DNA of 64,000 nucleotides from Candidatus Omnitrophota bacterium (lineage in GTDB: Bacteria; Omnitrophota; Gorgyraeia; 1-14-0-20-64-10). The stretch covers positions 18,822 through 82,821 of the forward strand of contig JACQCH010000040.1 of the NCBI GenBank assembly GCA_016201735.1. Reading direction: 5' to 3'. Made by a program: the position numbers and the translations under genes. Shown here piece by piece: positions 10,764-40,025 of the stretch (the first letter of the stretch is position 1; every line of letters starts with the position of its first letter). Under the pieces are notes generated by a model. That model was not told the origin of the DNA. It ran no database searches and worked only from the letters and a program-made list of their open reading frames with translations.

Positions 10764-11974
10764 GGACGATTGGAGTGGTCACGGTGGGGCGGTCCGACTA
10801 CGGAATCCTGGTTCCGATCTTAAGAAGGATCCAGCATGATCCGGAACTTGAACTTTATCTGTTTGTCGGGGGAACTCATCTGTCTTCGGAATTCGGCCGG
10901 ACCGTTCGGGCCATTGAAGCGGACGGTTTTCCAATTGAGTCCCGGATCAGGATGGATCTCTCTTCGGATGCACCGGAAGGGATCACCCGATCAATGGGCT
11001 CGGGGATGCGCGGATTTGGTCGGGCCTTTGTTTCTTCCCGCCCGGACCTGTTGCTGGTCACCGGAGATCGCTTCGAGATGTTCTCTGCGGCGGCCGCCTC
11101 GGTGCCGCTGAATCTTCCCCTGGCGCATCTTCATGGCGGAGAGATCTCCGAAGGGGCGATGGACGACCGTTTCCGCCATGCGATCACGAAACTGAGCCAC
11201 TTGCATTTCGCCGCCACGGGGGAAGCCAAGAATCGGATCCTTCGGATGGGGGAGGAACCATGGCGGGTGACCGTCTCAGGGGCTCCCAGCTTGGACAATC
11301 TCCACTCCATGCCTCTTCTGGATCCTCGAGACCTGGAGGCCCGGTTCGGGCTCCGACTCAAAGAGCCCCCCCTTCTGGTGACCTACCATCCGGTCACCTT
11401 AGAGTGGGAGCAGACCGATGTGCAGATCCAGGATCTGCTTCAGGCTCTGGGCCGCGCGGATCTGCCGGTGGTCTTCACTCAGACCAACGCGGACACCTCC
11501 GGTCGAACGATTCAAAGAAGGATTCGGGAATTTGTGAAAAGCAACCCGAGCCGGGCGCAGATCGCCAATAACCTGGGAACTCAAGGATACTTCAGCCTCA
11601 TGGCCGCGGCCGCCGCAATGGTCGGAAATTCTTCGAGCGGTTTTGTGGAGGCGCCGTCGTTCGGGCTTCCTGTGGTCAACGTGGGAAAGCGCCAGCAGGG
11701 AAGGCTCCGGGCCGCGAATGTGATCGATGTCGAGTGCGGGGAGGAGGCGATCGCGGATGGAATCCGCAGAGCGATCGCCCCGGAATTCCGGGCCTCGTTG
11801 AAAGGGTTGAAAAATCCCTACGGGGAAGGGAAGGCCTCGGAGATCATTGTCCGGGGATTAAAAGAAGTTGAGTTGGGTCAACGGTTGATCATCAAAAGGT
11901 TTATCCCATGGTCCGATGCCTCCTCTTGGGCGGGGGCGGTCACGCCCGCGTCCTCATCGACTGCATCCGTTTAA
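10760..11974 (+). CDS. legG: Hydrolysing nucleotide-sugar 2-epimerase (NeuC/LegG family)
   Basis: 'MRTIGVVTVGRSDYGIL...HLHGGE...' matches the UDP-GlcNAc 2-epimerase fold family. ATGA overlap with the upstream gene. Confidence 0.75.
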   Translation: MRTIGVVTVGRSDYGILVPILRRIQHDPELELYLFVGGTHLSSEFGRTVRAIEADGFPIESRIRMDLSSDAPEGITRSMGSGMRGFGRAFVSSRPDLLLVTGDRFEMFSAAAASVPLNLPLAHLHGGEISEGAMDDRFRHAITKLSHLHFAATGEAKNRILRMGEEPWRVTVSGAPSLDNLHSMPLLDPRDLEARFGLRLKEPPLLVTYHPVTLEWEQTDVQIQDLLQALGRADLPVVFTQTNADTSGRTIQRRIREFVKSNPSRAQIANNLGTQGYFSLMAAAAAMVGNSSSGFVEAPSFGLPVVNVGKRQQGRLRAANVIDVECGEEAIADGIRRAIAPEFRASLKGLKNPYGEGKASEIIVRGLKEVELGQRLIIKRFIPWSDASSWAGAVTPASSSTASV

Positions 11975-12570
11975 GCCAAGCGGCGGATCCGGTGGGCATC
12001 CTGGACTCCGACCCGGTTCTTTGGGGCTCGGAACGGATGGAGGTGCCCATTCGCGGTTCGGATGAGCTCCTTTCCAAGATGAAACAGGAGGGGGTTACCC
12101 ATTTCGTCGTTGGATTGGGCGGCGTCGGGGATAATCAACCCCGACGCCGTCTGTTCGACCTGGGGGTTGCGCATGGGTTGGTCCCCTTGACGGTGTGTCA
12201 CCCGCGGGCGATCCTTTCGATGTGGGCCTCCATCGGTGCGGGTTGCGCAATCCTGCCTGGAGCGGTGGTTAATGCGGGCGCTCATCTGGGCGTTAACGTG
12301 ATCGTTAACTCCGGAGCGATTGTGGAGCATGACTGCCGGATTGAGGATCACGTTCACGTGGCCAGCGGGGCGAGGCTCGCCTCCACCGTCCATGTGAAAG
12401 CCGGCGCCCACATTGGAGCGGGGGCGACCGTCCGACAGGGCTTATCCATCGGGGAAAGAGCCGTCGTTGGGGCGGGAGCCGTGGTCGTTAAGAATGTGGA
12501 GCCCGGGACGGTCGTGACCGGGGTCCCGGCCAGGGAATGGAGCCGAGCGGAACGAGGAGGGGATTCCTAA
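11908..12570 (+). CDS. Hexapeptide-repeat sugar N-acetyltransferase (NeuD/PglD/LegH family)
   Basis: 'MVRCLLLGGGGHARVLIDCI' N-terminal Rossmann-like domain plus a C-terminal left-handed beta-helix with repeats 'IGAGA..V..G..IG'. Confidence 0.7.
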   Translation: MVRCLLLGGGGHARVLIDCIRLSQAADPVGILDSDPVLWGSERMEVPIRGSDELLSKMKQEGVTHFVVGLGGVGDNQPRRRLFDLGVAHGLVPLTVCHPRAILSMWASIGAGCAILPGAVVNAGAHLGVNVIVNSGAIVEHDCRIEDHVHVASGARLASTVHVKAGAHIGAGATVRQGLSIGERAVVGAGAVVVKNVEPGTVVTGVPAREWSRAERGGDS

Positions 12571-12572
12571 CC

Positions 12573-13658
12573 ATGTATACGGATCTAAGTCAATTCTGCA
12601 TCGATAAAGAAAAAATCCTTCAGGAAGCCATTACCTTGGTGGACCGAAGTCGGTTAGGAATCGTGTTGGTCGTGGATGAAGAGCGACATCTGATAGGTAC
12701 CATCACCGATGGAGATGTGCGGCGGGCTATGCTGGCCAAGTTTGATATGTCCCAGCCCCTGACTGCTCTTCTGGAAAGAAAAGCCCGCACGGTTCACGCC
12801 CACCCCATCGCAGCTCCGGCAGGAGCCGATCGATCAGTCTATCTGAATCTGCTGAGAACCCATGGGATTCTCCACCTTCCGATTCTGGATGAAATGGGGC
12901 AAGTGACCGGACTGGTGACCATGCAGGAATTCCTGCCGGAACAGGTACTTCCGCTCCACGCGGTGGTCATGGCCGGCGGATTGGGGACTCGCCTGCATCC
13001 GTTGACGGAAGACACGCCAAAGCCGATGCTGCGGGTCGGAGATCGTCCCCTGCTGGAGATCATCATCCGCCAGTTGCGTGAAGCGGGGATTCGAGAGGTC
13101 AAAATCACTACCCATCATAAGCCGGAAAAGATCGAGGCCCATTTCGGAGATGGAAAGAATTTCGGCGTAAAGCTCTCGTATGTGGAGGAGAACCAGCCGT
13201 TGGGAACCATTGGGAGTTTGGGGCTTTTAGAAGTTCCCCAAGAAACGACGCTCGTCATCAACGGGGATATCCTGACGCGGTTGGACATTCGAGCGATGTT
13301 GGCGTTTCACAAGGAGCACAAGGCAGATCTGACTGTGGCGGTCCGCCATTACGATGTCAAGGTCCCTTACGGCGTTATCGAATGTGAGGGACCCGTTGTT
13401 CGGAAGGTAAGCGAAAAGCCAGTGATCGGATTTTTTGTGAACGCCGGAATCTATCTTTTGGATCCGGCCGTCTATCAATACATCCCATGCGGACAGCGGT
13501 TTGACATGACCGATTTGATCCAACGCATTCTCAAGGAGGGCCGACCGGTCATCAGCTTCCCGATACGTGAGTACTGGCTGGATATCGGCCAGCACGCCGA
13601 TTACGAGGAGGCGCAGGGACAGGTCAAGGATTGGGAACTATTGCAAGATGGCCGATAA
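12573..13658 (+). CDS. ptmE: CBS-domain nucleotidyltransferase (PtmE-like; GlcN/GlcNAc-1-P guanylyltransferase candidate)
   Basis: ATG 12573 after a GGAGG. N-terminal CBS pair ('IVLVVDEERHLIGTITDGDVRRAM'), then 'AVVMAGGLGTRLHPLTEDTPKPML', the NTP-transferase motif. Confidence 0.65.
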   Translation: MYTDLSQFCIDKEKILQEAITLVDRSRLGIVLVVDEERHLIGTITDGDVRRAMLAKFDMSQPLTALLERKARTVHAHPIAAPAGADRSVYLNLLRTHGILHLPILDEMGQVTGLVTMQEFLPEQVLPLHAVVMAGGLGTRLHPLTEDTPKPMLRVGDRPLLEIIIRQLREAGIREVKITTHHKPEKIEAHFGDGKNFGVKLSYVEENQPLGTIGSLGLLEVPQETTLVINGDILTRLDIRAMLAFHKEHKADLTVAVRHYDVKVPYGVIECEGPVVRKVSEKPVIGFFVNAGIYLLDPAVYQYIPCGQRFDMTDLIQRILKEGRPVISFPIREYWLDIGQHADYEEAQGQVKDWELLQDGR

Positions 13659-14652
13659 ATCGAAGGAAGGTTTTTGGAAAGACAAGCGGGTTCTCGTGAC
13701 CGGAGCCGGAGGATTCATCGGGAGTCACCTCGCCGAAAGGCTGGTTGAGCTTGGAGCGAAGACCCGGGCGTTCGTCCATTACCGGGCCGACGGTTCCTGG
13801 GGATGGCTTAACAACTCTCCTTGGAAGGATCGAATGGAAGTCCTTGCCGGCGACATTTGCGATAGGGACAGCGTGTTCCAGGCGGTGGAAGGAATGGAGA
13901 TCGTTTTTCATTTGGCGGCCCTTATCGCCATTCCTTATTCGTATCATGCGCCCTATTCCTATTATCGAACCAACGTGGAGGGGACGCTCCACCTCCTGCA
14001 GGCCGCCAGGGCATGCCGCCCCCATCGCATCATTCATACCTCGACCAGCGAGGTGTATGGGACCGCCCAATACTGTCCCATCAATGAGGGGCATCCGTTA
14101 CAAACACAGTCCCCTTATGCGGCCAGTAAATGCGGAGCGGACAAACTCGTGGAAGCCTTTTTCCATTCCTATGAACTTCCGGTGGTTACCGTCCGTCCCT
14201 TCAATACCTTTGGGCCGCGTCAATCGAGTCGGGCCATTGTACCGGCCATCATTACTCAATGCCTGACCCGTGAGACCATTCGGCTGGGGAACCTGCATCC
14301 CACCCGAGACCTTAATTTCGTCGAGGACATTGTGGAAGGATTCCTTTGCGCCGCCATCGCCGAAAAAGCGGTGGGTTGGACGGTGAACCTGGGTACCGGC
14401 AGGGAAATATCGATTCAGACATTGGCTGAAAAGATCGCCGAACTGACCTCCCATTCCATAGCTCTCGAACAAGATTCGAAACGGGTTCGGCCCCAACACA
14501 GCGAGGTGGAGCGGTTGGTGGCGGACAATTCGTTGGCTCGGCAGCTTTTGGGATGGGCTCCTAAGATTAGGTTGGAAGAGGGGCTTAAAGTTACCATTGA
14601 CTGGACAAGGGAGCATTTGGATGGCTATCGGCCAGGCGTCTACGTTCTCTGA
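13648..14652 (+). CDS. NAD-dependent nucleotide-sugar 4,6-dehydratase (LegB-like)
   Basis: 'KRVLVTGAGGFIGSHLAERL' Rossmann motif and 'YAASK' catalytic dyad. Extended SDR, 334 aa. Confidence 0.65.
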   Translation: MADKSKEGFWKDKRVLVTGAGGFIGSHLAERLVELGAKTRAFVHYRADGSWGWLNNSPWKDRMEVLAGDICDRDSVFQAVEGMEIVFHLAALIAIPYSYHAPYSYYRTNVEGTLHLLQAARACRPHRIIHTSTSEVYGTAQYCPINEGHPLQTQSPYAASKCGADKLVEAFFHSYELPVVTVRPFNTFGPRQSSRAIVPAIITQCLTRETIRLGNLHPTRDLNFVEDIVEGFLCAAIAEKAVGWTVNLGTGREISIQTLAEKIAELTSHSIALEQDSKRVRPQHSEVERLVADNSLARQLLGWAPKIRLEEGLKVTIDWTREHLDGYRPGVYVL

Positions 14653-15808
14653 AATCCCACTGTCGGTTCCGCTCTTTCAGGGGAATGAGTGGAAGTACCT
14701 GAAGGAATGCCTGGACGCCGGTTGGGTTTCTTCAGCAGGCAGTTTTGTAGACCGGTTTGAGCGGGAAATAACCTCCGCTGTGGAGGCTCCGTATGCGGTG
14801 GCGACGGTCAATGGAACGGCTGCCTTGCACATTGCCCTGAAAACGACAGGCCTGGAACCTGAGGAAGAAGTATTGGTTTCCGATCTGACCTTTATCGCCC
14901 CGGTGAATGCGATACGGTACTGCGGCGCGCATCCGGTGCTGGTGGATTCCGATCCATCCTCCTGGCAAATGGATACAGAGCGGTTGGAGCAATTTCTGCA
15001 GGAAGGGTGCGTCTTTAAAGAGGGCAAGCTGTTCAATAGGAAAACGCTCCGCCGGGTCCGAACCATCCTGCCGGTACATATCTTGGGACTCACTTGTGAA
15101 ATCGACCGAATCGCGGCATTGGCGAGTCAATTTCGATTAAGCGTCGTTGAAGATGCTGCGGAAGCCCTCGGCGTGCGGTATCAAGACAGACACGTCGGCA
15201 CTTTTGGAGATGTCGGCGTGCTGAGTTTCAATGGAAACAAGGTAGTTACGGCTGGAGGAGGCGGCATGCTGGTGACCCGTCATAAGGAACTGGCCCGTTG
15301 CGCCCGATATTTAACCACTCAGGCCAAGGATGACGATTTTGAATCCATCCATCACGAGATAGGATACAACTATCGATTAACCAACCTCCAGGCCGCCTTG
15401 GGTGTGGCGCAGTTAGAACAATTGCCGGCCTTCCTTGTCAAGAAACGTTGGATCGCCCAATCGTATGCGGACCGTCTAAAGGATCTGGAAGGATTGACCT
15501 TGATGCCGGTCCCGAGCCATACAGAGCCGACCTTCTGGTTGTATACGGTGCTTCTACCCGAAGGGACAGCGTTGTCCCAGCGCAATCGTATCTTAATGGG
15601 AATGCGGGAGCAGGGGATTGGCGCAAGACCCCTTTGGCATCCGATTCATGGGCAACCCCCTTATCAGAAATGCGAGGTCCTGGGGGGAGAGATCGCTACG
15701 GACCTTTACCATCGAGGCATCAGTCTTCCTTCCTCAGTCGGACTCTCTGAAGAAGAGCTGACCCGGTGCGTCGAGGTGTTTCGGCAGGAGTTTCGGGTCT
15801 CCGGATGA
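14621..15808 (+). CDS. DegT/DnrJ/EryC1/StrS PLP-dependent sugar aminotransferase (LegC/PseC-like)
   Basis: 'IPLSVPLFQGNEWKYLKECLDAGWVSS' is the family N-terminus. The PLP-lysine region 'SFNGNKVVTAGGGG' is present. Confidence 0.75.
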   Translation: MAIGQASTFSEIPLSVPLFQGNEWKYLKECLDAGWVSSAGSFVDRFEREITSAVEAPYAVATVNGTAALHIALKTTGLEPEEEVLVSDLTFIAPVNAIRYCGAHPVLVDSDPSSWQMDTERLEQFLQEGCVFKEGKLFNRKTLRRVRTILPVHILGLTCEIDRIAALASQFRLSVVEDAAEALGVRYQDRHVGTFGDVGVLSFNGNKVVTAGGGGMLVTRHKELARCARYLTTQAKDDDFESIHHEIGYNYRLTNLQAALGVAQLEQLPAFLVKKRWIAQSYADRLKDLEGLTLMPVPSHTEPTFWLYTVLLPEGTALSQRNRILMGMREQGIGARPLWHPIHGQPPYQKCEVLGGEIATDLYHRGISLPSSVGLSEEELTRCVEVFRQEFRVSG

Positions 15809-17820
15809 CGATTTTTGTAGAATATCTAACACTCCTAAAGGAACTCACCTTCGTTTTCCCCCGGCTCGGACGGGGAAGCAAATGCTTTTTTATCGATGCG
15901 ACCCGACCGGCCCTCATCCTTGCCAAGGTTTTCGAGCGGATCGTCGGGACGGAAATTCGCGCGCTCTCATTCCGTCTGATTGACATCCGGGATGAAAAAG
16001 GTCAGTTTTTGCGATGGCGGCTCCACTACAAGGACCTCATCGAGGTCCGGGCGGAGATCCTGAAAGATCCGGAATTCCGGCGTCTGCTGGAAGGATCTTT
16101 AAATGAGGACCGGCTGCCCACCTTCCTGGCCAAGGCCCTGAGTCTCTTCACTTTTTCCAATCGGCAGACCCTCTGGCGGGCCTTGTTAGTCATTCAGATT
16201 TTTGTCTGGAAGGCGCGACGCGAACAGATAGAGAAACCGGTGCTTCTTTTGGAGCGCCGGCCATGGTTTTACATCCTTCAACGATATGCCTCTCGATTTG
16301 GTCTTCAACTGGTTCCAGGGCCTCCCTCTTGGCGGTCGGATCTGCGGTCGATGTTGAAAAGCGTGCTCGGGCCGGGAGGATCCGCGTTGAAGCGGTTTCT
16401 TGTGTATAAGAAGAACCGTGTGGACTCGTTGGGAGCGGCCGACTCTTCCGGCTTTAAGATCGCCGTAGAATATTATGGCCATCTCAATCTCAAGCGGCCC
16501 GAATATTATTCGGACATGTTTTTCTTGCGCGGCCCTGAGCTGTCCGCTCGGAATCTGCTGGTTCTGTTTGGAATACCGCAAGATCCTTTAACCCCTCAGA
16601 AATGGGAGGAGATTTCCAGTCTTGGAATCTCCGCATTGGCGACTCATCCCAAAGCAACGGAAGTATCGAATGCGCCGCTCTTCGAGCCCCAGATTCGATG
16701 GAAGGCCGGTCGGCGGGAAAAAGAATTGCTTGCCGGCCTTTCCCCATCGATCGAAGGCCGGTGGTTAAAAAGCCATCTCCACCAATATTTCGCATCGCGT
16801 GCTTTTTGGGAAGATCTATTTGCTCAACATCGAGTGAAGCTTTTCATCACCTGGTATAAATACGATGGGGCTCATTGCCCGATTGCCGATGCCTTAGAAG
16901 GTTTAGGAGGAGTGACCGCCATCTATCAGCGGGCCTACGAGGCGCATCCCTCGGCGGAGACCCTCGTGGCGGTGGATCTGCTTTTTGCTTTCTCCCCCCG
17001 GATGGCTGAGATGGAACGGCGCTCTGGGTCGAAGATCCGGTATCACGTGGCGACGGGATATGTTGGGGATTATCGTTTTCCCCTCCTCAAGGAAGGGGCT
17101 CAGAAGATCCGGCAGCAGCTTCAGCGCCATGGGGCCCGCCGGATCTTGGCCTTCACCGATGAAGGTTCCATCGATGATACCCGGTGGCACACCGGTCATG
17201 AATTCCAGAGAGAAAACTACGCCTTCCTGCTGCAAAAAGTCCTTCGGGAGTCATGGTTTGGACTGGCGATCAAACCCAAAGACCCTTCCTCCTTGCGTCG
17301 AAGGTTGGGGAAGGTGAGTAAGCTCCTTGAAGAAGCGGAAAAGACCGGTCGGTGTTTCGTCTATCAAGAAGGAGGCCTTAACAGCTCCATCCCTCCCGCG
17401 GCGGCTGCCTTAGCCTCCGATGCGCTGATTCATGGACACCTGAGTGCGGGAACAGCCGCTGTCGAGTCGGCGTTGGTCGGTGTGCCCACCCTATTGCTCG
17501 ACCGAGAGGGGTGGCCTCTTTCGCCGCTGTACCGATTGGGGTTGGGGAAAGTGGTTTTCAACGATTGGGATACCTTCTGGGCCATTCTTTATGAGCACTG
17601 GCATCGGCCCGAAGGAGTCCCTGGATTTGGAGATTGGACTCTTATTCTGGAAGAGATGGATCCATTCCGAGACGGACGAGCCGCTGAACGGATCGGGACG
17701 TATCTTGCTTGGCTCTTGGACGGATTTAAGGGAGGGTTGTCCCGGGAAACAGTCTTGGCGGATGCCGCTCAAAGATATGCTGAGCGATGGGGGGCGGATA
17801 AGGTGACCAGCGTCTTATGA
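15805..17820 (+). CDS. Hypothetical ~670-aa protein, paralog A (putative GT-B-like C-terminal domain); candidate nonulosonic-acid transferase
   Basis: ATG 15805 (ATGA overlap) gives 'MTIFVEYLT...', which aligns with the start of paralog B. C-terminus 'ASDALIHGHLSAGTAAVESALVGVPTLL' resembles the GT-B C-terminal donor-binding region. No named family recognised. Confidence 0.55.
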   Translation: MTIFVEYLTLLKELTFVFPRLGRGSKCFFIDATRPALILAKVFERIVGTEIRALSFRLIDIRDEKGQFLRWRLHYKDLIEVRAEILKDPEFRRLLEGSLNEDRLPTFLAKALSLFTFSNRQTLWRALLVIQIFVWKARREQIEKPVLLLERRPWFYILQRYASRFGLQLVPGPPSWRSDLRSMLKSVLGPGGSALKRFLVYKKNRVDSLGAADSSGFKIAVEYYGHLNLKRPEYYSDMFFLRGPELSARNLLVLFGIPQDPLTPQKWEEISSLGISALATHPKATEVSNAPLFEPQIRWKAGRREKELLAGLSPSIEGRWLKSHLHQYFASRAFWEDLFAQHRVKLFITWYKYDGAHCPIADALEGLGGVTAIYQRAYEAHPSAETLVAVDLLFAFSPRMAEMERRSGSKIRYHVATGYVGDYRFPLLKEGAQKIRQQLQRHGARRILAFTDEGSIDDTRWHTGHEFQRENYAFLLQKVLRESWFGLAIKPKDPSSLRRRLGKVSKLLEEAEKTGRCFVYQEGGLNSSIPPAAAALASDALIHGHLSAGTAAVESALVGVPTLLLDREGWPLSPLYRLGLGKVVFNDWDTFWAILYEHWHRPEGVPGFGDWTLILEEMDPFRDGRAAERIGTYLAWLLDGFKGGLSRETVLADAAQRYAERWGADKVTSVL

Positions 17821-18722
17821 GTATCCGCATCATTCCCCGTTTAGATATCAAGGGACCCAATGTGGTCAAGGGCGTTCATTTAGAGGGCTTGCGCGTCATG
17901 GGGGTTCCCGAGCTGTTTGCTGCCCAATACTATCAGGATGGAGCGGATGAGTTAATCTACATCGATGTGGTAGCCAGTCTTTACGGCCGCAACAGCCTTG
18001 ACGAGGTTGTTCGGCGTGCGGCGCAGAACATCTTTATCCCCCTAACCGTCGGCGGTGGTATCCGAACGATCGATGACATCCGTCGTTTACTAAGAGCCGG
18101 CGCGGACAAGGTAGCGATCAATACCGCCGCAATCAAGAATCCAAAACTGATCCAAGAAGCCGCCCGCGCCTTCGGTTCTCAGTGCATTGTGCTTTATATC
18201 GAAGCCAAGAAACGGGGGCCGGGCAGATATGAATGTTTAACGGATAACGGTCGGGAATCGACCGGCTGCGACGTGTTTGAGTGGGTGAGGCAAGCAGTTC
18301 ATTTGGGTGCGGGAGAGATTCTCCTCACCTCCATCGATCAGGAAGGGACCGGAAAGGGTTATGACTTAGAGTTGACCGCGGAGGTGGCCCAGCGTGTTGA
18401 TGTACCGGTGATTGCCTCCGGAGGGGCCGGAGCACCCGAACACATTCGAGACGCCGTTCTCTTGGGCAAGGCAGACGCCGTTTGCGCAGCGTCCGTATTT
18501 CACTACCAATTAATTCAGACAGGGGAAGCCTCGCTTAACCCCATCCGGTTTGAAGAAGGGAACGTTGAGTTTTTAAAGGGGCGGCTTCCCATCGCCGCGT
18601 TTACCCGGCAGCGAATCGCGCCCTTGAGGATTCCGGAAATTAAAGAGTACCTGGAGAAAGCCGGGATCCCCATTCGCCGACTCAATCTGGAGTCCATGAG
18701 CAACTCAAGGAAAATGGAATAA
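17817..18722 (+). CDS. wbuZ: Imidazole-glycerol-phosphate synthase cyclase subunit homolog (HisF-like, WbuZ-type)
   Basis: 'IIPRLDIKGPNVVKGVHLEGLRVMGVPELFAAQYYQDGADELIYIDV' is a HisF TIM-barrel signature. Its position in a glycan locus next to a HisH-like gene fits a sugar-modification role. Confidence 0.75.
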   Translation: MSIRIIPRLDIKGPNVVKGVHLEGLRVMGVPELFAAQYYQDGADELIYIDVVASLYGRNSLDEVVRRAAQNIFIPLTVGGGIRTIDDIRRLLRAGADKVAINTAAIKNPKLIQEAARAFGSQCIVLYIEAKKRGPGRYECLTDNGRESTGCDVFEWVRQAVHLGAGEILLTSIDQEGTGKGYDLELTAEVAQRVDVPVIASGGAGAPEHIRDAVLLGKADAVCAASVFHYQLIQTGEASLNPIRFEEGNVEFLKGRLPIAAFTRQRIAPLRIPEIKEYLEKAGIPIRRLNLESMSNSRKME

Positions 18723-18725
18723 ATA

Positions 18726-19445
18726 ATGGATAGATCCCCGCACCCATCCCGAGTGCTTATTGTCGATTACGGCTCGGGCAATCTCTTCAGCATCGAAAGG
18801 GCCCTGCACTCTTTAGGGGCGGAGGTTGAGATCAGCGCTGATCCCGACGCGCTCCGGCGCGCTCCGGGAGTGATTTTGCCTGGTGTGGGCGCCTTCGGAG
18901 ACGGAATGAAAAATTTAAGGGAAAAGGGATTGCTGACCCCCTTGGCGGAATACGCCCAATCCGGTCTGCCCCTGCTGGGTATCTGTCTGGGGATGCAGCT
19001 CCTATTCACGGAGAGCCAAGAATTTGGCCGTCATGAGGGACTCGGACTTATCCCCGGGAAGGTCGTGAACCTTCGGCCGACGGACCCTCAAGGGAGAAGA
19101 GTCAAAATCCCGCATGTGGGGTGGAGCCAATTAATGTGTCCACCTTCTCGTCCGCATTGGAACGATACAATCCTCATGGGTTTGCCGGTGGGGGAAGCCA
19201 TGTATTTTGTCCATTCTTTTATTCCCGTTCCTGAGGATTCTGCCGTTGTCGCCCAGATGATCTATGGCGGACATCTTTACTGTGCTGTTGTGGAAAGACG
19301 AAACATGATAGGATGCCAGTTTCATCCAGAAAAGAGCGGTCCTGTGGGCTTGCGTTTCTTGCGGAATTTCTTAACTCGAATCAAACCACCCAAAGAAGAG
19401 TTCACCGCGGTAAATCCTGCCGCAGTAATAAGGAGACGTGAATGA
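18726..19445 (+). CDS. wbuY: Class I glutamine amidotransferase (HisH-like, WbuY-type)
   Basis: 'VLIVDYGSGNLFSIERAL', 'LPGVGAFGD' and 'GICLGMQLL' (catalytic Cys) form a HisH signature. Confidence 0.75.
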   Translation: MDRSPHPSRVLIVDYGSGNLFSIERALHSLGAEVEISADPDALRRAPGVILPGVGAFGDGMKNLREKGLLTPLAEYAQSGLPLLGICLGMQLLFTESQEFGRHEGLGLIPGKVVNLRPTDPQGRRVKIPHVGWSQLMCPPSRPHWNDTILMGLPVGEAMYFVHSFIPVPEDSAVVAQMIYGGHLYCAVVERRNMIGCQFHPEKSGPVGLRFLRNFLTRIKPPKEEFTAVNPAAVIRRRE

Positions 19446-20653
19446 GCCTTGTGATGGGGATAAACCCTGTGGTTGGAGGAATGGAGAAACAACTGCTCAC
19501 TCAGCCCCAGGAGGTGAAGTTCTGCAGGCGATGCGTGGTTTCCAATCAAAGGCCGCGAATCCGGTTCGATGAGGAAGGAGTTTGCAGTGCGTGCCGGTTC
19601 GCTTACGAGAAGTATCACGTCGTCGATTGGGGGAGCCGCGAGGCGCAGTTGGAACAACTCTTGGAAAAACACCGAAGGAAAGACGGCACTTGGGATGTGA
19701 TCGTTCCCTGCAGCGGTGGGAAGGATTCTTCCTATGTGGCCCATCAGCTTAAGGCCAAATACGGAATGCATCCCTTGACAGTCACCTGGGCTCCTTTCCG
19801 CTCCACGGAGATCGGCTATAAAAACTTTCTTTCCTTCGTCGATTCCGGTTTCAATAATTTAACGGCCTATCCCAACGGCCGTTTCCATCGCAAGTTAGCC
19901 CGGCTTTCACTCGAGGAGTTGGGCGATGCCTGGCAGCCGTTTACCTACGGCCAAATGTGCTACGCCTTTCATATCGCAAAGCGTTTCAACATCAACCTCA
20001 TATTCTTTGGCGAAAACGGAGAAGCGGAATATGGGGGGGATCCGAAAAACAATTACCGACCCTATATGCCGTTCGAAGATTGGGCCCTGCTTTATTTCAA
20101 GGGCACAACGATTGATGAACTTGTTCAATTCGGACTCAAGCACAAGAATTACTTGACGGCTCAGGACTTCGACCCATCGGATCTCACCTTTTATCGACCC
20201 CCGGCGATCGAGCAGCTTGACCTGACGGGGATTCAGATGCACTGGTATTCCTACTATCACAAATGGGTTCCCCAAGAAAATTATTATTACAGCATTGATC
20301 ATACGGGCTTCTGCGCCAATCCCGAGCGGTCAGAAGGGACCTATTCGAAATATGCCAGCCTCGATGACCGGATGGACGGATTCCACTTTTACATGGGATA
20401 CATCAAATTTGGTATCGGCCGGACTACCTCTGATGTCGCCCATGAGATTCGGGACGGTCATCTGACACGGGAAGAAGGGGTGCGGCTGGTTCGGCGCTAC
20501 GATGGGGAATTCCCTTCAAAATACTTTGCAGAATTTCTTGCCTACCTGGATATCGATGAAAACCATTTTTGGAAAGTGGCCGAGCATTACCGGCAGCCTC
20601 ACCTATGGGAGAAAATCAACGGGGAATGGAAGCTGACGCACCAGGTGAGCTAG
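19442..20653 (+). CDS. wbuX: N-acetyl sugar amidotransferase (PP-loop ATP-pyrophosphatase, WbuX/PseA/PtmG family), copy 1
   Basis: N-terminal Zn ribbon 'CRRC...CSAC' and PP-loop 'VPCSGGKDSSY'. 403 aa. Visibly lower GC than its neighbours. Confidence 0.7.
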   Translation: MSLVMGINPVVGGMEKQLLTQPQEVKFCRRCVVSNQRPRIRFDEEGVCSACRFAYEKYHVVDWGSREAQLEQLLEKHRRKDGTWDVIVPCSGGKDSSYVAHQLKAKYGMHPLTVTWAPFRSTEIGYKNFLSFVDSGFNNLTAYPNGRFHRKLARLSLEELGDAWQPFTYGQMCYAFHIAKRFNINLIFFGENGEAEYGGDPKNNYRPYMPFEDWALLYFKGTTIDELVQFGLKHKNYLTAQDFDPSDLTFYRPPAIEQLDLTGIQMHWYSYYHKWVPQENYYYSIDHTGFCANPERSEGTYSKYASLDDRMDGFHFYMGYIKFGIGRTTSDVAHEIRDGHLTREEGVRLVRRYDGEFPSKYFAEFLAYLDIDENHFWKVAEHYRQPHLWEKINGEWKLTHQVS

Positions 20654-20728
20654 AGGATTCCCGCTGGAGTTTACCCTCGGCTCCAACCGAGGGTGGGAAT
20701 GACACGCAGCGGTAGAGGAGGGCCATGA

Positions 20729-21958
20729 ATGGCTGAGCAAGCGGTGAAGGAATCGGAGCGGCTGGAGTCCAGGTACGGTCTGCCGGAGAAGGTGATTTTC
20801 TGCAAATGGTGCCTGATATCCAACCAGCGCCCCTGTTCCTCGGTGGAGTTCAAGCATGGGAAGGACCGGCAGCACCGCAGCCTCCACATTGATGAAGAAG
20901 GAATCTGCGACGCCTGCCGTTTTGCGGAGCAGAAGGAACAGGTCGACTGGGCTGACCGGGAGAAGGAGCTCGTCAAACTTCTGGACAAGCACCGCCGGAA
21001 AGACGGCGGCTACGACTGCGTCGTCCCCGGAAGCGGCGGCAAGGACAGCTGTTATACTTCCCACGTCTTGAAATACAAATACGGGATGCATCCCTTGACC
21101 GTCACCTGGCCTCCCATCCTTTATACCGACATCGGGTGGAAAAATTTCCTGGGCTGGATCGAGGTGGGGGGCTTTGACAACATCACCTACAGGCCGAACG
21201 GGCGGGTTCACCGCCTGCTCACCCGGCTTTCCATCGAGAATCTTCTGCATCCCTTCCAGACCTTTATCCTGGGGCAGAAGAACCTGGCTCCCAAGATGGC
21301 GCTTCAGATCCAGGTGCCGCTGATCTTCTATGGAGAGAACGAAGCCGAATATGGGAACCCGATCGCGGACAATTCCACCTCCCTGCGGGACAAATCGTAC
21401 TACACGATGAACCATCTCTCGGAGATCTCCCTGGCCGGCCTGCCGGTTCCGGAGCTGATGGAGCGGCACGGCCTGTCCCTGAATGATCTGAAAGCCTATC
21501 TGCCGGCGGACAGCCGGGAGCTGGAGCGATTCCCCATGGAGGTCCATTACCTGGGTTATTACCTGAAATGGACTCCGCAGGAGAGCTATTACTACGCCGT
21601 CGAGCACACGGGCTTCGAGGCCAACCCGGTTCGGACGGAAGGGACCTACAGCAAGTACAACAGCTTGGATGACAAGATTGATGGACTGCACTATTTTACT
21701 ACTTTTATTAAATTTGGCCTTGGGCGGGCCACGTACGATGCTTCCCAGGAGATCCGGAACAAACACCTCACCCGGGAAGAGGGAGTGGCCTTGGTCCGGC
21801 GATTTGACGGGGAGTTTCCCCAACGGTATTTCCAAGAGGTGATGGAGGCGATCGGAATGAAAGAGGAGCGATTCCTTGAGCTGTGCGATCAGTTCCGATC
21901 GCCTCACCTCTGGAAAAAGGAGGAGGGCCGGTGGCAATTGCGGCATCAGGTTTCGTGA
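20729..21958 (+). CDS. wbuX: N-acetyl sugar amidotransferase (WbuX/PseA family), copy 2
   Basis: 'CKWC...CDAC' Zn ribbon and 'VPGSGGKDSCY' PP-loop. It is a paralog of copy 1, about 55-60% aa identity by eye. Confidence 0.7.
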   Translation: MAEQAVKESERLESRYGLPEKVIFCKWCLISNQRPCSSVEFKHGKDRQHRSLHIDEEGICDACRFAEQKEQVDWADREKELVKLLDKHRRKDGGYDCVVPGSGGKDSCYTSHVLKYKYGMHPLTVTWPPILYTDIGWKNFLGWIEVGGFDNITYRPNGRVHRLLTRLSIENLLHPFQTFILGQKNLAPKMALQIQVPLIFYGENEAEYGNPIADNSTSLRDKSYYTMNHLSEISLAGLPVPELMERHGLSLNDLKAYLPADSRELERFPMEVHYLGYYLKWTPQESYYYAVEHTGFEANPVRTEGTYSKYNSLDDKIDGLHYFTTFIKFGLGRATYDASQEIRNKHLTREEGVALVRRFDGEFPQRYFQEVMEAIGMKEERFLELCDQFRSPHLWKKEEGRWQLRHQVS

Positions 21959-22007
21959 GAGGGTATCCTGCACCTTCCGATCCTTAGCCGATGCTCCAGG
22001 AATCCCT

Positions 22008-24083
22008 ATGACGATCTTTGTTGAGAATCTAACTTTTAAAAGCTGGCTGACGGCCGTGCTCCCTCGGTTGAGGCGGGGCGGGCGTTGCCTCTTTATTTAT
22101 TCCACCCCAACCGCTCGGGTTCTCACCCGATTTTCCGATCGGTTCTTGGGAACGGAGACTCGGTTGTTTGAGTTCCGGTTGATCGATGTCCGTGATGAAA
22201 AGGGGCAGCTCCTGCGTTGGAGAATCACTTATCAGGATTTGGCGGAGGTTCAACAGGAGATATTGAACGATCCCCGATTCCGGTTCTTGCTGGAGGGCCC
22301 ATTGAATCAGGGCCGGCTTCCTACCTTCTTCGCGAAGGATCTGGGCACGATCAGTCTCTCCGATCGAAAAACGCTCTGGCGGGTCCTGCTCACCATCCAG
22401 ATTTGCGTCTGGAAGAGCCGGCGCGATCGGATCGAAGGGCCGATCCTTGTGATGGAGCGCCGCCCTTGGTTTGATATCCATCAGCGGTATGCCTCCCGGT
22501 TTGGGCTTCGGCTGATTCCGGCTTCTCCCTATCAGCGGGGGAATCTCCGACAGACCCTGAAAAGATGGCTGGGACCGGGTGGGGTGGTATTAAAACGGTT
22601 TGTTCGGCGGTCATCCTCGCTCTCGATGACGCTCGAGGGCGGGAATGACAACAAATCAGGTCCAAAGCTGGCCGTGGAATATTACGGCCATCTGAACTTG
22701 AGACAGCCGGAATGCTACTCGGATTTATTCTTCTGGCACCGGTCTGCCTTGTCCGGACAGGATTTGTTGGTTCTGTTTGGAGTTCTCGACGACCCTTTAA
22801 ATTCCAAGAAGTGGGAGGAGATCACGAGCTTAGGGATTTCCGCTCTTGTGACTCATCCGAAGGCAACGAGAATCTCCGAGGCCCCGATTTTTATCCCAAG
22901 GGTTCGATGGACGCCGCATCGACTTGAAAGAGATCTTCTGGCCTCTCTTCCTCGGTCTAGGGAAGGTCAGTGGATGAAAAGAGAGATCCGCCATTACCTC
23001 TGCCAGCGTGCCTTTTGGGAAGATCTGTTCGCCCAACAGAAGGTGAAGCTCTTTATTGCCTGGTACAAATACGATGGGGCCCATTGCGCAATCGCCGACG
23101 CCTTGGAGAGTTTAGGGGGAGTCACCGCCATCTATCAGCGGGCCTATGAGGTGCACCCATCGGCGGAGACTACCGTGGCGGTGGATCTGGTTTTTGGTTT
23201 CTCCCCCCAGGGGGTCGAGCTGGAACGGCGCTGTAGCTCGAAGATTCGGTATTACGTGACCACCGGATATGTCGGGGATTATCGTTTCCCACTCCTCAAG
23301 GAAGGATCTCAGAAGATCCGGCAGCAGCTTCAGGGCCATGGGGCCCGGCGCATCCTGGCCTTCACTGATGAAAGTTCCGCCGGCGATTCCCGGTGGCACA
23401 GCGGTCATGAATTCCAGAGAGAAAATTATGCCTTTCTGCTCACCAAGGTTCTCCAGGAACCTTGGTTTGGCCTGACGATCAAGCCAAAGGCCCCGGTCTC
23501 TTTGCGCCGGCGGTTGGGGCCGACGGCCCGACTCCTTGAGGAAGCGGAAGCCACCGGTCGCTGTTTTGTTTATGAGGGGGAGAGCCTCCACGGCTCGGCC
23601 CCCGTGGCGGCCGCGGCGTTGGCCGCCGATGCGCTGATTCATGGGCACTTATGTGCCGGAACTGCCGGGATGGAATCGGCCTTAGCCGGCGTGCCGACCT
23701 TGATGCTGGATCGGGAAGGATGGCCGCCGTCACCGCTGTACCGGTTGGGGGAAGGCCAAGTGGTTTTTAAGGACTGGGATCTTTTTTGGAAGGTTCTCGT
23801 TGAACATTGGACCCGGCCCGGTGGGGTTCCCGGATTTGGAGACTGGTCGCCGATCTTGGAGGAGCTGGATCCGTTTCGAGATGGGCGGGCGGCCGAGCGG
23901 ATCGGAATGTATCTTTCCTGGCTTTTGGAGGGGTTCAAGGCCGGGTTGTCCCGGGAGACAGTCATGGCCGACGCGGCCAACCGGTATGCCCAGCGGTGGG
24001 GGAGGGATAAGGTGACTCAAGTTGACGGGAAAGCTCTTCTTTCTCCTGTCCCCGCCGAGATTCCTGTGAGGAGCGGGGTTTAA
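22008..24083 (+). CDS. Hypothetical ~690-aa protein, paralog B of 15805..17820
   Basis: 'MTIFVENLTF...'. The C-terminal ~320 aa are nearly identical to paralog A ('WYKYDGAHC.IADALE.LGGVTAIYQRAYE.HPSAET...'). Confidence 0.55.
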   Translation: MTIFVENLTFKSWLTAVLPRLRRGGRCLFIYSTPTARVLTRFSDRFLGTETRLFEFRLIDVRDEKGQLLRWRITYQDLAEVQQEILNDPRFRFLLEGPLNQGRLPTFFAKDLGTISLSDRKTLWRVLLTIQICVWKSRRDRIEGPILVMERRPWFDIHQRYASRFGLRLIPASPYQRGNLRQTLKRWLGPGGVVLKRFVRRSSSLSMTLEGGNDNKSGPKLAVEYYGHLNLRQPECYSDLFFWHRSALSGQDLLVLFGVLDDPLNSKKWEEITSLGISALVTHPKATRISEAPIFIPRVRWTPHRLERDLLASLPRSREGQWMKREIRHYLCQRAFWEDLFAQQKVKLFIAWYKYDGAHCAIADALESLGGVTAIYQRAYEVHPSAETTVAVDLVFGFSPQGVELERRCSSKIRYYVTTGYVGDYRFPLLKEGSQKIRQQLQGHGARRILAFTDESSAGDSRWHSGHEFQRENYAFLLTKVLQEPWFGLTIKPKAPVSLRRRLGPTARLLEEAEATGRCFVYEGESLHGSAPVAAAALAADALIHGHLCAGTAGMESALAGVPTLMLDREGWPPSPLYRLGEGQVVFKDWDLFWKVLVEHWTRPGGVPGFGDWSPILEELDPFRDGRAAERIGMYLSWLLEGFKAGLSRETVMADAANRYAQRWGRDKVTQVDGKALLSPVPAEIPVRSGV

Positions 24084-24085
24084 GG

Positions 24086-26021
<1,936 letters not shown>

Positions 26022-26939
26022 GTGAAGGTTCTCGTCACAGGAGGTTCCGGCCTTTTGGGCGCTCACCTGCTGGTTGGACTGCAGGGGCGGCGATACGATG
26101 TCGTGGGGACCGATCGGAATCCCTGGTGGGGGGACGTTCCGGTGGATTTTCGCGTGGGAGATTTGAGCGATCCGGAATTTTTGAAATCGCTGATCCGTTC
26201 CGTCCGGCCGGAACTTTTGATTCACTGCGCGGCCCTGGTGGACGTGGAGGCCTGTGAACGCAGGCCCGAGGAGGCCTCCCGGATCAACGGGAAATTGCCC
26301 GGGTTTTTGGCCGGGGCGGCGGGAGACCGCTGCCGGGTGGTTTTTCTTTCAACCGATTCGGTCTTCTCTGGGGAGAAGGCCTTTTCTTCAGAGGAGGATC
26401 TTCCATCGCCTCGCAATGCCTACGCCAGTTCCAAACGGGAAGGGGAAGAGCAGGTCCAGCGCCGCGCCCCGCATTGCCTGATCCTTCGAACCAACTTCTA
26501 CGGGTGGTCTTCAGGAAGGAAAAAGACCTCCGCTGAATGGATGGTCCGATCTCTTCAGACCCAACAGCCGATGACTCTATTTGAGGATCTGTTTTTCACT
26601 CCCATCTATGTGCCTGATCTGGTGGAGGGGCTGATCCGCCTTTTGGAATGCCAGGTGGAGGGGATCTTTCACCTGGGGGGGCGGGATCGGGTCTCGAAGT
26701 ACCAGTTCGGACAGCTTCTGGCCGAGGAGCTGGGAGTTTCGATGGACCGGGTTCAACGAGGTTCGGTGGAGAGGGCCGGGTTCGCCGCCGAACGGCCCAG
26801 GGATATCTCGTTGAACAGCCAACGGTACTGTGAGATCACAGGGGCGGATCTGCCCGGATGCAGGGAAGGAATCCGCCGGTTCGCCGCCGACGGTTCCAAA
26901 CCGCTGTCGCAGAGGTTCCAATGTCCGGTCCTTCGGTAA
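26022..26939 (+). CDS. RmlD-like nucleotide-sugar 4-reductase (dTDP-4-dehydrorhamnose reductase family; WbvR-like)
   Basis: GTG start. 'MKVLVTGGSGLLGAHL' Rossmann motif and 'YASSK'. About 305 aa, typical for the RmlD substrate-binding fold. Confidence 0.6.
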   Translation: MKVLVTGGSGLLGAHLLVGLQGRRYDVVGTDRNPWWGDVPVDFRVGDLSDPEFLKSLIRSVRPELLIHCAALVDVEACERRPEEASRINGKLPGFLAGAAGDRCRVVFLSTDSVFSGEKAFSSEEDLPSPRNAYASSKREGEEQVQRRAPHCLILRTNFYGWSSGRKKTSAEWMVRSLQTQQPMTLFEDLFFTPIYVPDLVEGLIRLLECQVEGIFHLGGRDRVSKYQFGQLLAEELGVSMDRVQRGSVERAGFAAERPRDISLNSQRYCEITGADLPGCREGIRRFAADGSKPLSQRFQCPVLR

Positions 26940-31248: not shown

Positions 31249-31257
31249 GGAGTTCGC

Positions 31258-32217: not shown

Positions 32218-32221
32218 CGTT

Positions 32222-34507: not shown

Positions 34508-34525
34508 GCAGATGAGGGGGTAAGA

Positions 34526-36861: not shown

Positions 36862-36868
36862 TGGAGCC

Positions 36869-40024: not shown

Positions 40025-40025
40025 G

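Follow-up and report, generated by a model that had tools for sequence, protein, structure and literature searches.

A complete GDP-type legionaminic acid (Leg) locus in a Ca. Omnitrophica MAG carries four consecutive forward-strand genes (17817-21958) that code for a HisF-like protein, a HisH-like glutaminase and two diverged PP-loop N-acetyl sugar amidotransferases (NASATs), here called X1 and X2. Positions refer to the analyzed stretch of 64,000 nucleotides, hereafter the window. The best explanation for the arrangement as a whole, which we consider probable, is that the four genes serve to produce acetamidino (acetimidoylamino) legionaminic acid, that both NASATs act on Leg, and that the locus combines two merged cassettes. 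The parts of this module are of a kind already known. What is unusual in the window is the position of the module, the presence of a second NASAT type, and the two copies of an uncharacterized gene, BIG, that flank the NASAT pair.

A first-pass annotation had recognized all four genes, including the SGGKDS motif and zinc site of both NASATs, and had read them as an acetamidino module with two diverged amidotransferases beside Leg genes. Our analysis of protein families, motifs and gene context supports both statements and indicates that the module is glutamine-dependent.

The HisF-like and HisH-like pair

The first gene of the module (17817..18722, +) codes for a (beta-alpha)8 protein of 301 amino acids, an analogue of WbuZ that is predicted to be the ammonia-channel partner of the glutaminase. 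The protein matches PF00977 (E=1.7e-69, 234 bits) and scores just over the cut-off of the hisF model TIGR00735 (300.9 versus 294.55 bits), but it falls under those of the WbuZ model TIGR03572 (276.1 versus 299.7 bits) and the AglZ/HisF2 model (204 versus 310 bits). The second gene (18726..19445, +) codes for a class-I glutamine amidotransferase of 239 amino acids, a WbuY analogue, which matches TIGR01855 (197.1 bits, cut-off 105.4) and PF00117 and whose translation includes a GICLG nucleophile elbow and an HPE motif. Two Logan runs and the NCBI MAG, as independent assemblies, agree on the order of the four module genes.

HisF is the obligate partner of HisH in imidazole-glycerol-phosphate synthase. 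The scores above, with both proteins passing equivalog cut-offs and the first failing the WbuZ model, would fit ordinary histidine-biosynthesis genes that are located here by chance, leaving the NASATs to use free ammonia. However, in 64 of the 80 GTDB loci, from many phyla, that were sampled for the gene context of X2-type NASATs, HisF-HisH immediately precedes the NASAT, and no further his genes were found in the 64-kb window. Moreover, the pair overlaps or abuts BIG1 and X1 by 3-4 nucleotides, including a 4-nucleotide overlap of the BIG1 stop and the HisF-like start, and dedicated pairs are found beside NASATs in E. coli O145 and C. jejuni. We therefore regard a chance location as extremely improbable.

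Two subfamilies of amidotransferase

X1 (19442..20653, +; 403 amino acids) and X2 (20729..21958, +; 409 amino acids) both match the NASAT model TIGR03573 (cut-off 203.2) with 333.9 and 345.0 bits, respectively. Both ORFs are intact and carry the SGGKDS PP-loop and a CxxC...GxCxxC tetracysteine zinc site, which reads CxxC...GVCSAC in the translation and alignment of X1. The proteins differ in the zinc ribbon. The cysteine pairs of X1 are separated by 16 residues, which places it in a short zinc-ribbon subfamily, whereas those of X2 are separated by 31 residues that include a 15-residue insert. This insert aligns with residues 55-69 of the L. pneumophila enzyme LpNASAT (PMC10607449), in which it forms a lid, and it is absent from X1.

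Judging from sequence, the nearest characterized relative is the Leg-associated NASAT of L. pneumophila (PDB 8WEX), matched with 348 bits by X1 and with 567 bits over the full length by X2. X2 thus appears to be a close relative of an enzyme linked to Leg5Am7Ac. Both have numerous relatives: X1 matches at least 120 database clusters with identities of 62-80%, and X2 has at least 576 relatives in GTDB species genomes. X1 and X2 are only 48% identical to each other, so they are not allelic assembly duplicates. Instead, they are old paralogues belonging to two old Leg-associated NASAT subfamilies.

The legionaminic acid locus and its conserved layout

The Leg genes lie directly upstream of the module. 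A first group (7221..12570, +), assigned with NCBIfam models, codes for a Gfo/Idh/MocA protein (PtmF-like), a CMP-nonulosonate synthetase (LegF-like), an SDR protein (PtmA-like), NeuB/LegI, NeuC/LegG and NeuD/LegH. Matches in this group exceed the cut-offs of TIGR03569 (426.3 bits), TIGR03568 (431.2 bits) and TIGR03570 (212.2 bits), and those for PseF-like (145.4 bits) and PtmA-like (117.3 bits) proteins are under theirs. The group is followed by a PtmE-like gene (12573..13658, +) for a CBS and sugar-1-phosphate nucleotidyltransferase protein (NCBIfam nucleotidyltransferase; CBS and NTP_transferase Pfam domains on an identical protein), a LegB-like NAD-dependent 4,6-dehydratase gene (13648..14652, +; TIGR04180, 426.5 bits, below the cut-off of 475) and a LegC-family aminotransferase gene (14621..15808, +; TIGR04181, 465.6 bits, cut-off 420). 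A search of the window for PseC, PseH, PseG and PseI found none of them, leaving Leg as the only such pathway.

BIG1 (15805..17820, +; 671 amino acids) stands between LegC and the module. It has no sequence match in Pfam, NCBIfam or the PDB. Its AlphaFold model (pLDDT 93.1, pTM 0.92) gives weak Foldseek matches to GT-B enzymes (query TM 0.18-0.37), and homologues follow LegC in Leg loci from several phyla. The protein is thus a candidate glycosyltransferase of the Leg locus, from an uncharacterized GT-B-fold family. Its paralogue BIG2 (22008..24083, +; 691 amino acids) follows X2. The two proteins are 68% identical and are reciprocal best database matches, with the next best match at 52%.

Genes farther downstream provide context outside the amidino module. 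A cluster at 24086..28646 (+) codes for a GT2 protein, a PseB-like dehydratase (TIGR03589, 480.5 bits, cut-off 407.75), an RmlD-like reductase (TIGR01214, 169.7 bits, below cut-off), another GT2 protein and a polysaccharide deacetylase (PF01522). Two methyltransferase genes had been proposed to act in amidine N-methylation, but we found no specific link for either. The FkbM-type gene at 33536 belongs to the conserved second half of the locus, whichever NASAT type is present, and the gene noted at 44010 is a generic class-I methyltransferase gene (43845-44897).

Leg genes are present in 67 of the 80 sampled loci, and across phyla the canonical Leg locus carries HisF-HisH-NASAT between NeuD and PtmE. 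The earlier idea that the module had been specially inserted into a Leg locus is therefore not upheld, as the trio is standard there. The full canonical unit, HisF-HisH-X-PtmE-LegB-LegC-BIG, is found in seven loci (L006, L009, L012, L013, L015, L030 and L090). X1-type genes fill the HisF-HisH-X-PtmE slot in L006, L088, L090, L094-L097, L100 and L103, and this identical placement indicates that X1 is probably Leg-directed as well. The two types interchange in otherwise identical loci, as isofunctional enzymes would also do.

The two subfamilies occur together in the window and in only two of roughly 110 sampled loci. These are an Omnitrophota Leg locus (L013, JAHFGW010000003.1) and one on a metagenome contig (L093, OBEQ010102666.1), whose X2-type proteins are 74-76% and X1-type proteins 78-79% identical to the window copies, and where LegB-LegC-BIG follows. 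Neither gene order is that of the window: L013 has HisF-HisH-X2-X1-PtmE and L093 has HisF-X2-PtmE-HisF-HisH-X1. Each has one visible BIG gene rather than two, and neither has the permuted module position of the window.

A low-GC3 block and the origin of the arrangement

The HisF-HisH-X1 stretch had been described as richer in AT than its flanks. A distinct low-GC3 block does exist, but its borders (12573..20653) enclose more than was claimed, namely the seven genes PtmE-LegB-LegC-BIG1-HisF-HisH-X1, and exclude X2. Mean GC3 is 0.602 in the block versus 0.697 (sd 0.038) for other genes, and a run of seven consecutive genes like this one was reached in 0 of 20000 permutations. X1 has a GC3 of 0.616 and X2 one of 0.756, so there is a compositional step at their junction. 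In gene order the block is the canonical unit circularly permuted, with borders that coincide exactly.

This permuted block suggests the merger of two variants of the canonical seven-gene unit. The low-GC3 copy would be complete, and X2 and BIG2 would be the sole survivors of the other. Three observations lead to this model. The block matches exactly one permuted unit. The window LegB is only 28-29% identical to the LegB-position gene of the nearest Omnitrophota loci (L012 and L013), whereas it is 61-66% identical to that of L006, L009, L015 and L090 (there was no qualifying match in L030). Finally, the window HisH is closest to X1-linked HisH genes (59% in L093 and 57% in L115) and at most 51% identical to X2-linked ones. 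However, no relative of BIG1 is closer than BIG2, and vice versa. Local duplication accounts for such a pair no less well than uptake from a distant source does, so the merger is not the only possible model.

Proposed function of the two amidotransferases

Known NASAT family chemistry involves a PP-loop, a Zn(Cys)4 site and a proposed step that turns ATP into AMP and PPi (PMC10607449). By analogy with their families, the HisH-like glutaminase would free ammonia from glutamine and the HisF-like barrel would hand it on. The PP-loop of each NASAT would then spend ATP, yielding AMP and PPi, to activate an N-acetyl carbonyl in which NH replaces O. The most likely substrate is CMP-Leg5Ac7Ac, its activation stage and the targeted nitrogen being predictions too, and N-acetyl groups on Leg would become positively charged amidines. 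The single HisF/HisH pair presumably serves both X1 and X2, for which the C. jejuni island described below is a precedent.

Whether the two NASATs give different amidino outputs is, in our estimation, an evenly balanced matter; the difference could be another N position, both positions, or another substrate stage. In the merger model, X2 and BIG2 are the only genes kept from the second unit, so X1/X2 and BIG1/BIG2 are probably not redundant. The co-occurrence of both subfamilies in L013 and L093 likewise argues for distinct roles. If the outputs differ, each may have a GT-B protein of its own that uses it.

Alternatively, X1 and X2 might be isofunctional enzymes that both amidinate Leg N5, with the tandem being a transient by-product of merger or transfer in which one copy is doomed. 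The subfamilies swap in one slot of otherwise syntenic Leg loci, and the pair is rare. Furthermore, Leg5Am7Ac is the product linked both to LpNASAT, whose zinc ribbon is long, and to PtmG of C. jejuni, and the NASATs aligned in PMC10607449, including two Campylobacter sequences, are reported there to lack the insert. Yet both ORFs retain every catalytic motif, and the lid over the pocket differs between the types. The pair also persists in three loci with three gene orders, which implies long or repeated retention, and in the window the second unit has lost the five genes that were plainly redundant but not its NASAT and BIG genes. Isofunctional enzymes are thus a possible but somewhat unlikely explanation.

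We have less enthusiasm for a third possibility, in which X1 would turn the 2-N-acetyl group on a 6-deoxy-L-hexosamine into an amidine, as WbuX does on L-FucNAc. The PseB-like and RmlD-like genes that might supply this sugar lie 3 kb downstream, the E. coli O145 wbuXYZ genes adjoin fnlA-wbjC-wecB, and SugarBase lists a possible acetimidoyl UDP-HexNAc. However, X1 shares 19% identity with WbuX from E. coli versus 49-57% with Leg-locus NASATs, and in L006, L007, L088 and L090, Leg loci whose fetched flanks show no PseB-like gene, the only NASAT gene is of the X1 type. Conversely, a PseB-like gene stands beside BIG or LegC in X2-only loci (L008 and L009) and an X1-only locus (L096) alike, and so does not track the second NASAT. 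It follows BIG in both L009, where RmlD-like and GT2 genes come next, and L096. The hexosamine nitrogen, which the first-pass annotation had offered as a second target, is therefore very unlikely to be one, and two Leg-directed NASATs remain the preferred reading.

Comparison with known systems

The closest known system to X2 is LpNASAT (8WEX) from the L. pneumophila LPS locus, which shares SGGKDS, the four zinc cysteines, the 15-residue insert and a Leg locus. The window adds a second NASAT, X1, and encodes the GDP-type PtmE/LegB/LegC pathway, whereas a UDP-diNAcBac route is described for Legionella (PMC3766260). CMP-Leg5Ac7Ac is turned into CMP-Leg5Am7Ac by PtmG, of which L. pneumophila ORF28 is a homologue (PMC3766260). 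The crystallized LpNASAT is presumably ORF28.

The flagellin glycosylation island of C. jejuni, compared here by description, resembles the window in combining two NASATs, PseA (Cj1316c) and PtmG (Cj1324), with one HisF/HisH-like pair (Cj1314c/Cj1315c) in a nonulosonic-acid locus (PMC12102941). Its NASATs serve two sugars, Pse (N7) and Leg (N5), whereas the window has only Leg.

The module had been called WbuXYZ-type, but its genes are no orthologues of WbuXYZ. E. coli O145, which makes L-FucNAm, has the same three-part logic of PP-loop NASAT, HisH-like and HisF-like proteins, and its proteins and those of the window reach or come close to the thresholds of shared family models. However, identity to X1 and X2 is no more than 19-20% for WbuX, WbuY and WbuZ share 35% and 30% with their counterparts, and the order is X-Y-Z rather than the Z-Y-X of the window. 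In addition, WbuZ is annotated as AglZ/HisF2 type, a model that the window protein fails. WbpG of P. aeruginosa O5 (ManNAc3NAmA), also likened by description, is another NASAT family member that takes part in building an acetamidino group on a sugar of the O antigen, although it targets a diacetamido uronic acid, at its 3-N, rather than the Leg proposed here.

The amidino module

The window belongs to a Candidatus Omnitrophica MAG, and its interval 17817-21958 contains four genes and no more, all on the + strand. The first two code for a HisF-like protein (17817-18722; PF00977) and a HisH-like protein (18726-19445). The others, X1 (19442-20653, 403 amino acids) and X2 (20729-21958, 409 amino acids), code for N-acetyl sugar amidotransferases (NASATs) that are 48% identical. 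X1 matches positions 1-343 of the 344 in TIGR03573, the NCBIfam model of the WbuX subfamily, with 333.9 bits, and X2 matches positions 2-342 with 345.0 bits, both exceeding the curated cut-off of 203.2 bits. The PP-loop motif SGGxDS, as defined for NASATs (PMC10607449), is present as SGGKDS in both proteins. Both also carry the zinc-site tetracysteine motif CxxC-Xn-[GN]xCxxC, which reads CRRC...GVCSAC with a 16-residue spacer in X1 and CKWC...GICDAC with a 31-residue spacer in X2. Family models and motifs agree with the first-pass annotation, which had described a HisF-like and a HisH-like subunit with two Zn-ribbon/SGGKDS amidotransferases; its family-level reading as an N-acetyl sugar amidotransferase module is right. 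GenBank already labels both genes "N-acetyl sugar amidotransferase".

The HisH-like and HisF-like proteins exceed the equivalog cut-offs of TIGR01855 (197.1 versus 105.4 bits) and TIGR00735 (300.9 versus 294.55 bits). Such model matches show common ancestry and fold and are not evidence of a role in histidine synthesis; the gene context favours a function dedicated to glycans. The concern that the two NASAT genes might be allelic assembly duplicates was dismissed because of their low identity and because the gene order was assembled independently three times. Identical proteins in identical order are found in two independent Logan runs, and thus the module is no assembly artefact.

The legionaminic acid locus

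A full legionaminic acid (Leg) pathway of the Campylobacter GDP type lies directly upstream of the module. It includes genes for a Gfo/Idh/MocA oxidoreductase, a CMP-nonulosonate synthetase, a PtmA-like SDR, NeuB/LegI (426 bits), NeuC/LegG (431 bits), NeuD/LegH (212 bits), a PtmE-like CBS-nucleotidyltransferase, LegB (426.5 bits, below the cut-off of 475) and LegC (465.6 bits). The presence of LegI, LegG, LegH, PtmE, LegB and LegC bears out the earlier assignment of a Leg-locus setting.

In GTDB species genomes the NASAT query has at least 576 relatives, of which the best 80, all of the same type as X2, were analysed. HisF and HisH genes lie directly upstream on the same strand in 64 of these 80 loci, and Leg genes, at a minimum identity of 40%, are present in 67. 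The recurrent order, PtmF-LegF-PtmA-NeuB-NeuC-NeuD-HisF-HisH-NASAT-PtmE-LegB-LegC-BIG-U539-Gfo-MT-SIS, is seen in Omnitrophota, Acidobacteriota, Planctomycetota and unassigned metagenome contigs. Because the HisF-HisH-NASAT trio recurs in Leg loci across phyla, it is a standard component and no insertion peculiar to this genome, contrary to the view that it had been inserted into the locus. What is peculiar to the window is that the trio follows BIG1 rather than NeuD, and that both the NASAT and the BIG gene are present twice.

The LegB gene of the window (13648-14652) shares 61-66% identity with its positional counterparts in Acidobacteriota and Planctomycetota loci (L006, L009, L015 and L090). 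With the dehydratase genes that take its place in two Omnitrophota loci (L012 and L013), identity falls to 28-29%. A further locus, L030, has no qualifying match to it. By these identities, LegB reads as a non-orthologous replacement within an otherwise syntenic locus. Just upstream of the Leg genes is a 363-amino-acid ORF (6118-7209) whose match to a sulfotransferase domain is weak (PF00685, 23.9 bits), and sulfotransferase, ATP-sulfurylase and APS-kinase genes are found near the Leg and BIG genes of a SAR202 locus (L005).

Two NASAT subfamilies

X2 matches the Legionella pneumophila NASAT (LpNASAT, PDB 8WEX) with 567 bits and X1 with 348 bits. A 15-residue insert of LpNASAT is present in X2 and absent from X1, and therefore X2 is of the LpNASAT type, as defined by high full-length similarity plus the insert, whereas X1 is not. 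The spacer between the Cys pairs is 31-32 residues long in all 82 X2-type sequences sampled and 16 in all 35 X1-type sequences. The extra residues of the X2 type correspond to LpNASAT 55-69, a disordered fragment over the substrate pocket; according to the structure study, the other NASATs in its alignment lack it (PMC10607449). Across the sequences compared here, this lid insert is the hallmark of a large NASAT subfamily, which corrects the published impression of a feature confined to Legionella among the NASATs aligned.

X1 belongs to a deep orthogroup of its own, with at least 120 clusters at 62-80% identity. X1-type genes fill the HisF-HisH-X-PtmE-LegB-LegC-BIG slot in L006, L088, L090 and several metagenome contigs. 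Since this is the same slot that X2-type genes occupy, both subfamilies are Leg-associated, and orthologues of X1 and of X2 elsewhere are also embedded in Leg loci. The survey thus describes two distinct NASAT subfamilies that alternate, and occasionally occur together, in a Leg locus conserved across many uncultivated phyla. This alternation and co-occurrence offer a clean natural experiment, with three defined loci, for probing specificity determinants.

Composition and origin

The suggestion that hisF, hisH and the first wbuX copy are richer in AT than their flanks was correct in that a composition block exists, and wrong in its extent: the block covers seven genes at 12573-20653, from the PtmE-like gene to X1. 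Their mean GC3 is 0.602, compared with 0.697 (sd 0.038) for the other 46 genes, and none of 20000 permutations gave such a low-GC3 run. GC3 jumps where the two NASAT genes meet: X1 ends at about 0.58 and X2 begins at 0.79. The seven genes make up one complete canonical unit, HisF-HisH-X-PtmE-LegB-LegC-BIG, in circularly permuted order. In addition, the HisH-like protein of the window is closest to HisH proteins linked to X1-type genes (59% identity in L093 and 57% in L115, versus at most 51% for X2-linked ones). We infer that two variant units merged, and that X2 and BIG2 alone remain of the unit with higher GC3. BIG1 finds its best match in BIG2 and vice versa (68% identity; next best match 52%), so either the donor was closely related or the BIG gene was duplicated locally.

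No cassette-like repeats or mobile-element signature were found around X2, where the repeats are just short chance repeats and the homologous 3' ends of X1 and X2. The 75-nucleotide spacer between X1 and X2 is the sole sizeable gap in the run of genes from BIG1 to X2. It contains a hairpin with a perfect 7-bp stem (20674-20693, CCCTCGG-CTCCAA-CCGAGGG) and no T tract, which occurs once in the window, no more than chance predicts. A promoter and terminator scan of 15500-24300 gave counts at the level of shuffled sequence.

The BIG family

The two BIG genes (BIG1, 15805-17820; BIG2, 22008-24083) flank the amidino genes. Their products have no sequence match in Pfam (E<=1), NCBIfam (E<=0.001) or PDB sequences (E<=10), even with a 61-sequence profile. 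An AlphaFold model of BIG1 built from the 61-sequence alignment has a pLDDT of 93.1 and a pTM of 0.92. Its sole Foldseek matches in the PDB are GT-B enzymes and GT-B-like epimerases (OtsA, HepE, TagF, NeuC/WecB and a capsule polymerase), which are weak at query TM 0.18-0.37. Searched with a profile, 1.84 billion representative proteins gave 2128 BIG clusters at E<=1e-3, of which 1041 reach E<=1e-30. Nearly all are 650-740 amino acids long, and no functional name or Pfam domain is found among the homologues listed.

BIG homologues follow LegC in the Leg loci of several phyla. Because of this fixed place, BIG, a protein of about 700 residues with a predicted GT-B-like fold, is a candidate for the missing Leg transferase. 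Assignments as a Maf, sialyltransferase or TagF-type enzyme were rejected, since even the profile gave no sequence match. A 658-amino-acid protein at a similar position in L007 aligns with BIG at an hhalign probability of 6.6%, and the two have the motif DPxRDGxAxxR in common.

Proposed reaction and products

By family membership, X1 and X2 would carry out an ATP- and ammonia-dependent conversion of N-acetyl to N-acetimidoyl groups. Read by eye from the translation, the ammonia-gate residues of Thermotoga maritima HisF (R5, E46, K99 and E167), together with D11, appear conserved in the HisF-like protein, and the cyclase residue D130 appears as Glu. HisH would hydrolyse glutamine and the HisF-like barrel would channel the ammonia. 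The NASAT PP-loop would then adenylate the acetamido carbonyl, converting ATP to AMP and PPi, and ammonia would displace the oxygen of the activated carbonyl, a mechanism that is a proposal even for the family (PMC10607449). The analogy with PtmG makes CMP-Leg5Ac7Ac the likely substrate (PMC3766260; SugarBase preprint). In vitro proof of NASAT substrate, stage or regiochemistry was not found in the literature searched. An acidic nonulosonic acid becomes neutral by amidination, or cationic if it is amidinated twice, which alters cell-surface charge.

Both subfamilies co-occur in the window and in two of about 110 loci. L013 (JAHFGW010000003.1, Omnitrophota) has the order HisF-HisH-X2-X1, and L093 (OBEQ010102666.1, a metagenome contig; 347-10995) has HisF-X2-PtmE-HisF-HisH-X1-LegB-LegC-BIG, with two HisF copies and no HisH in front of X2. 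The NASATs of these loci are 74-79% identical to the window copies, and with the window there are three different orders. The rarity of co-occurrence, and the fact that X1-type and X2-type genes stand in for one another where loci are otherwise the same, would fit redundancy of X1 and X2, which we consider the less likely reading. Distinct roles are suggested by the intact state of both ORFs, by the difference in the lid, by the loss of five obviously redundant genes from the second unit while its NASAT and BIG were kept, and by the co-occurrence of the same two subfamilies in L013 and L093 in differing orders. On balance, the chances that X1 and X2 give distinct outputs are about even.

A more detailed scheme is rather a long shot. 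The subfamilies would be regiospecific for N5 and N7, and acting together on one sugar they would yield the bis-acetamidino, net-cationic Leg5Am7Am, or else two isomeric mono-amidino donors. The corresponding transferases would be the two BIG paralogues, which would make BIG, with more than 1000 clusters, a large and as yet unstudied GT-B family that transfers nonulosonic acids in uncultivated phyla. The literature searched contained no mention of Leg5Am7Am or Leg5Ac7Am, and nothing on legionaminic acid in Omnitrophota.

The PseB-like genes and a hexosamine target

Between BIG2 and a gene for a 539-amino-acid protein lie genes (24086-28646) for a GT2 enzyme, a PseB-like dehydratase (480.5 bits, above the PseB cut-off), an RmlD-like reductase, a second GT2 enzyme and a polysaccharide deacetylase. 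A PseB-like gene also stands after BIG in an Acidobacteriota locus (L009), with RmlD-like and GT2 genes, and in L096. PseC, PseH, PseG and PseI were not found among the 53 genes scanned in the window. A Campylobacter-like Pse pathway was rejected as the reason for a second NASAT, since only the PseB-like gene with the RmlD-like reductase is present. These genes probably make a 6-deoxy-L-HexNAc rather than pseudaminic acid.

The first-pass annotation had offered the 2-N of a 6-deoxyhexosamine as a second acceptor. This idea fared poorly: an X1-type gene is the sole NASAT in Leg loci whose fetched flanks carry no PseB-like gene (L006, L007, L088 and L090), and X2-only loci (L008 and L009) as well as one X1-only locus (L096) have a PseB-like gene after BIG or LegC, so the PseB-like module does not track the second NASAT. 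By this distribution, a hexosamine seems an unlikely target of X1. Some loci hold a further, distant NASAT (20-39% identity), several beside a second HisH/HisF pair of their own, and these look like separate modules.

Other genes of the glycan island

A long conserved block downstream of the deacetylase includes SIS, transaldolase-like, HpcH/HpaI aldolase, SDR and KdsB-like genes. In all, the genes at about 28624-38580 code for the 539-amino-acid protein, which has no assigned family, a Gfo/Idh/MocA protein, a methyltransferase, an SIS isomerase, a transaldolase/FSA-like protein, an FkbM methyltransferase, an HpcH/HpaI aldolase, two SDRs, a KdsB-like cytidylyltransferase and a 2-hydroxyacid dehydrogenase. 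In L012, L013, L015 and L030 the genes after BIG show synteny with the first part of this block, and L003 has similar genes. The block looks like a second, undescribed pathway for a CMP-activated keto-deoxy sugar acid.

At 39146-41867, a hexapeptide acyltransferase gene is followed by one for a 613-amino-acid FkbH-domain protein (TIGR01686, 301 bits). FkbH proteins load glycerate-derived units; Campylobacter nonulosonic acids are reported to carry N-acyl groups of the glyceroyl type, with which there might be a link. Two asparagine-synthase-type glutamine amidotransferases of the same island (2079-4097 and 50567-52408) may amidate sugar carboxyl groups; the former is near the XrtA/PEP-CTERM-associated type (483 bits, below the cut-off of that model). 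In an 827-amino-acid ORF (58955-61438), a GT4 glycosyltransferase is fused to a Wzy_C membrane domain, which is O-antigen ligase/polymerase-like, and two GT9 heptosyltransferase-like genes come next.

Comparison with known systems

The label "WbuXYZ-type" does not suit the module. WbuX of Escherichia coli O145 (NZ_CP006027.1) is 19-20% identical to X1 and X2, and WbuY and WbuZ are 35% and 30% identical to the HisH-like and HisF-like proteins, respectively. The O145 genes are ordered X-Y-Z and adjoin fnlA-wbjC-wecB, whereas the order in the window is HisF-HisH-X1-X2 between two BIG genes. The HisF-like protein falls below the cut-offs for WbuZ (TIGR03572, 276.1 versus 299.7 bits) and for AglZ/HisF2 (NF038364, 203.9 versus 310 bits), and the PseB-like protein scores 234 bits against the FnlA model, whose cut-off is 730. 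The use of one HisF/HisH pair for two NASATs has a precedent in Campylobacter jejuni, where Cj1314c/Cj1315c accompany PseA and PtmG. The module is of a known kind, and what is new is the pairing of two Leg-clade NASAT subfamilies with a duplicated GT-B-like gene of no assigned family.
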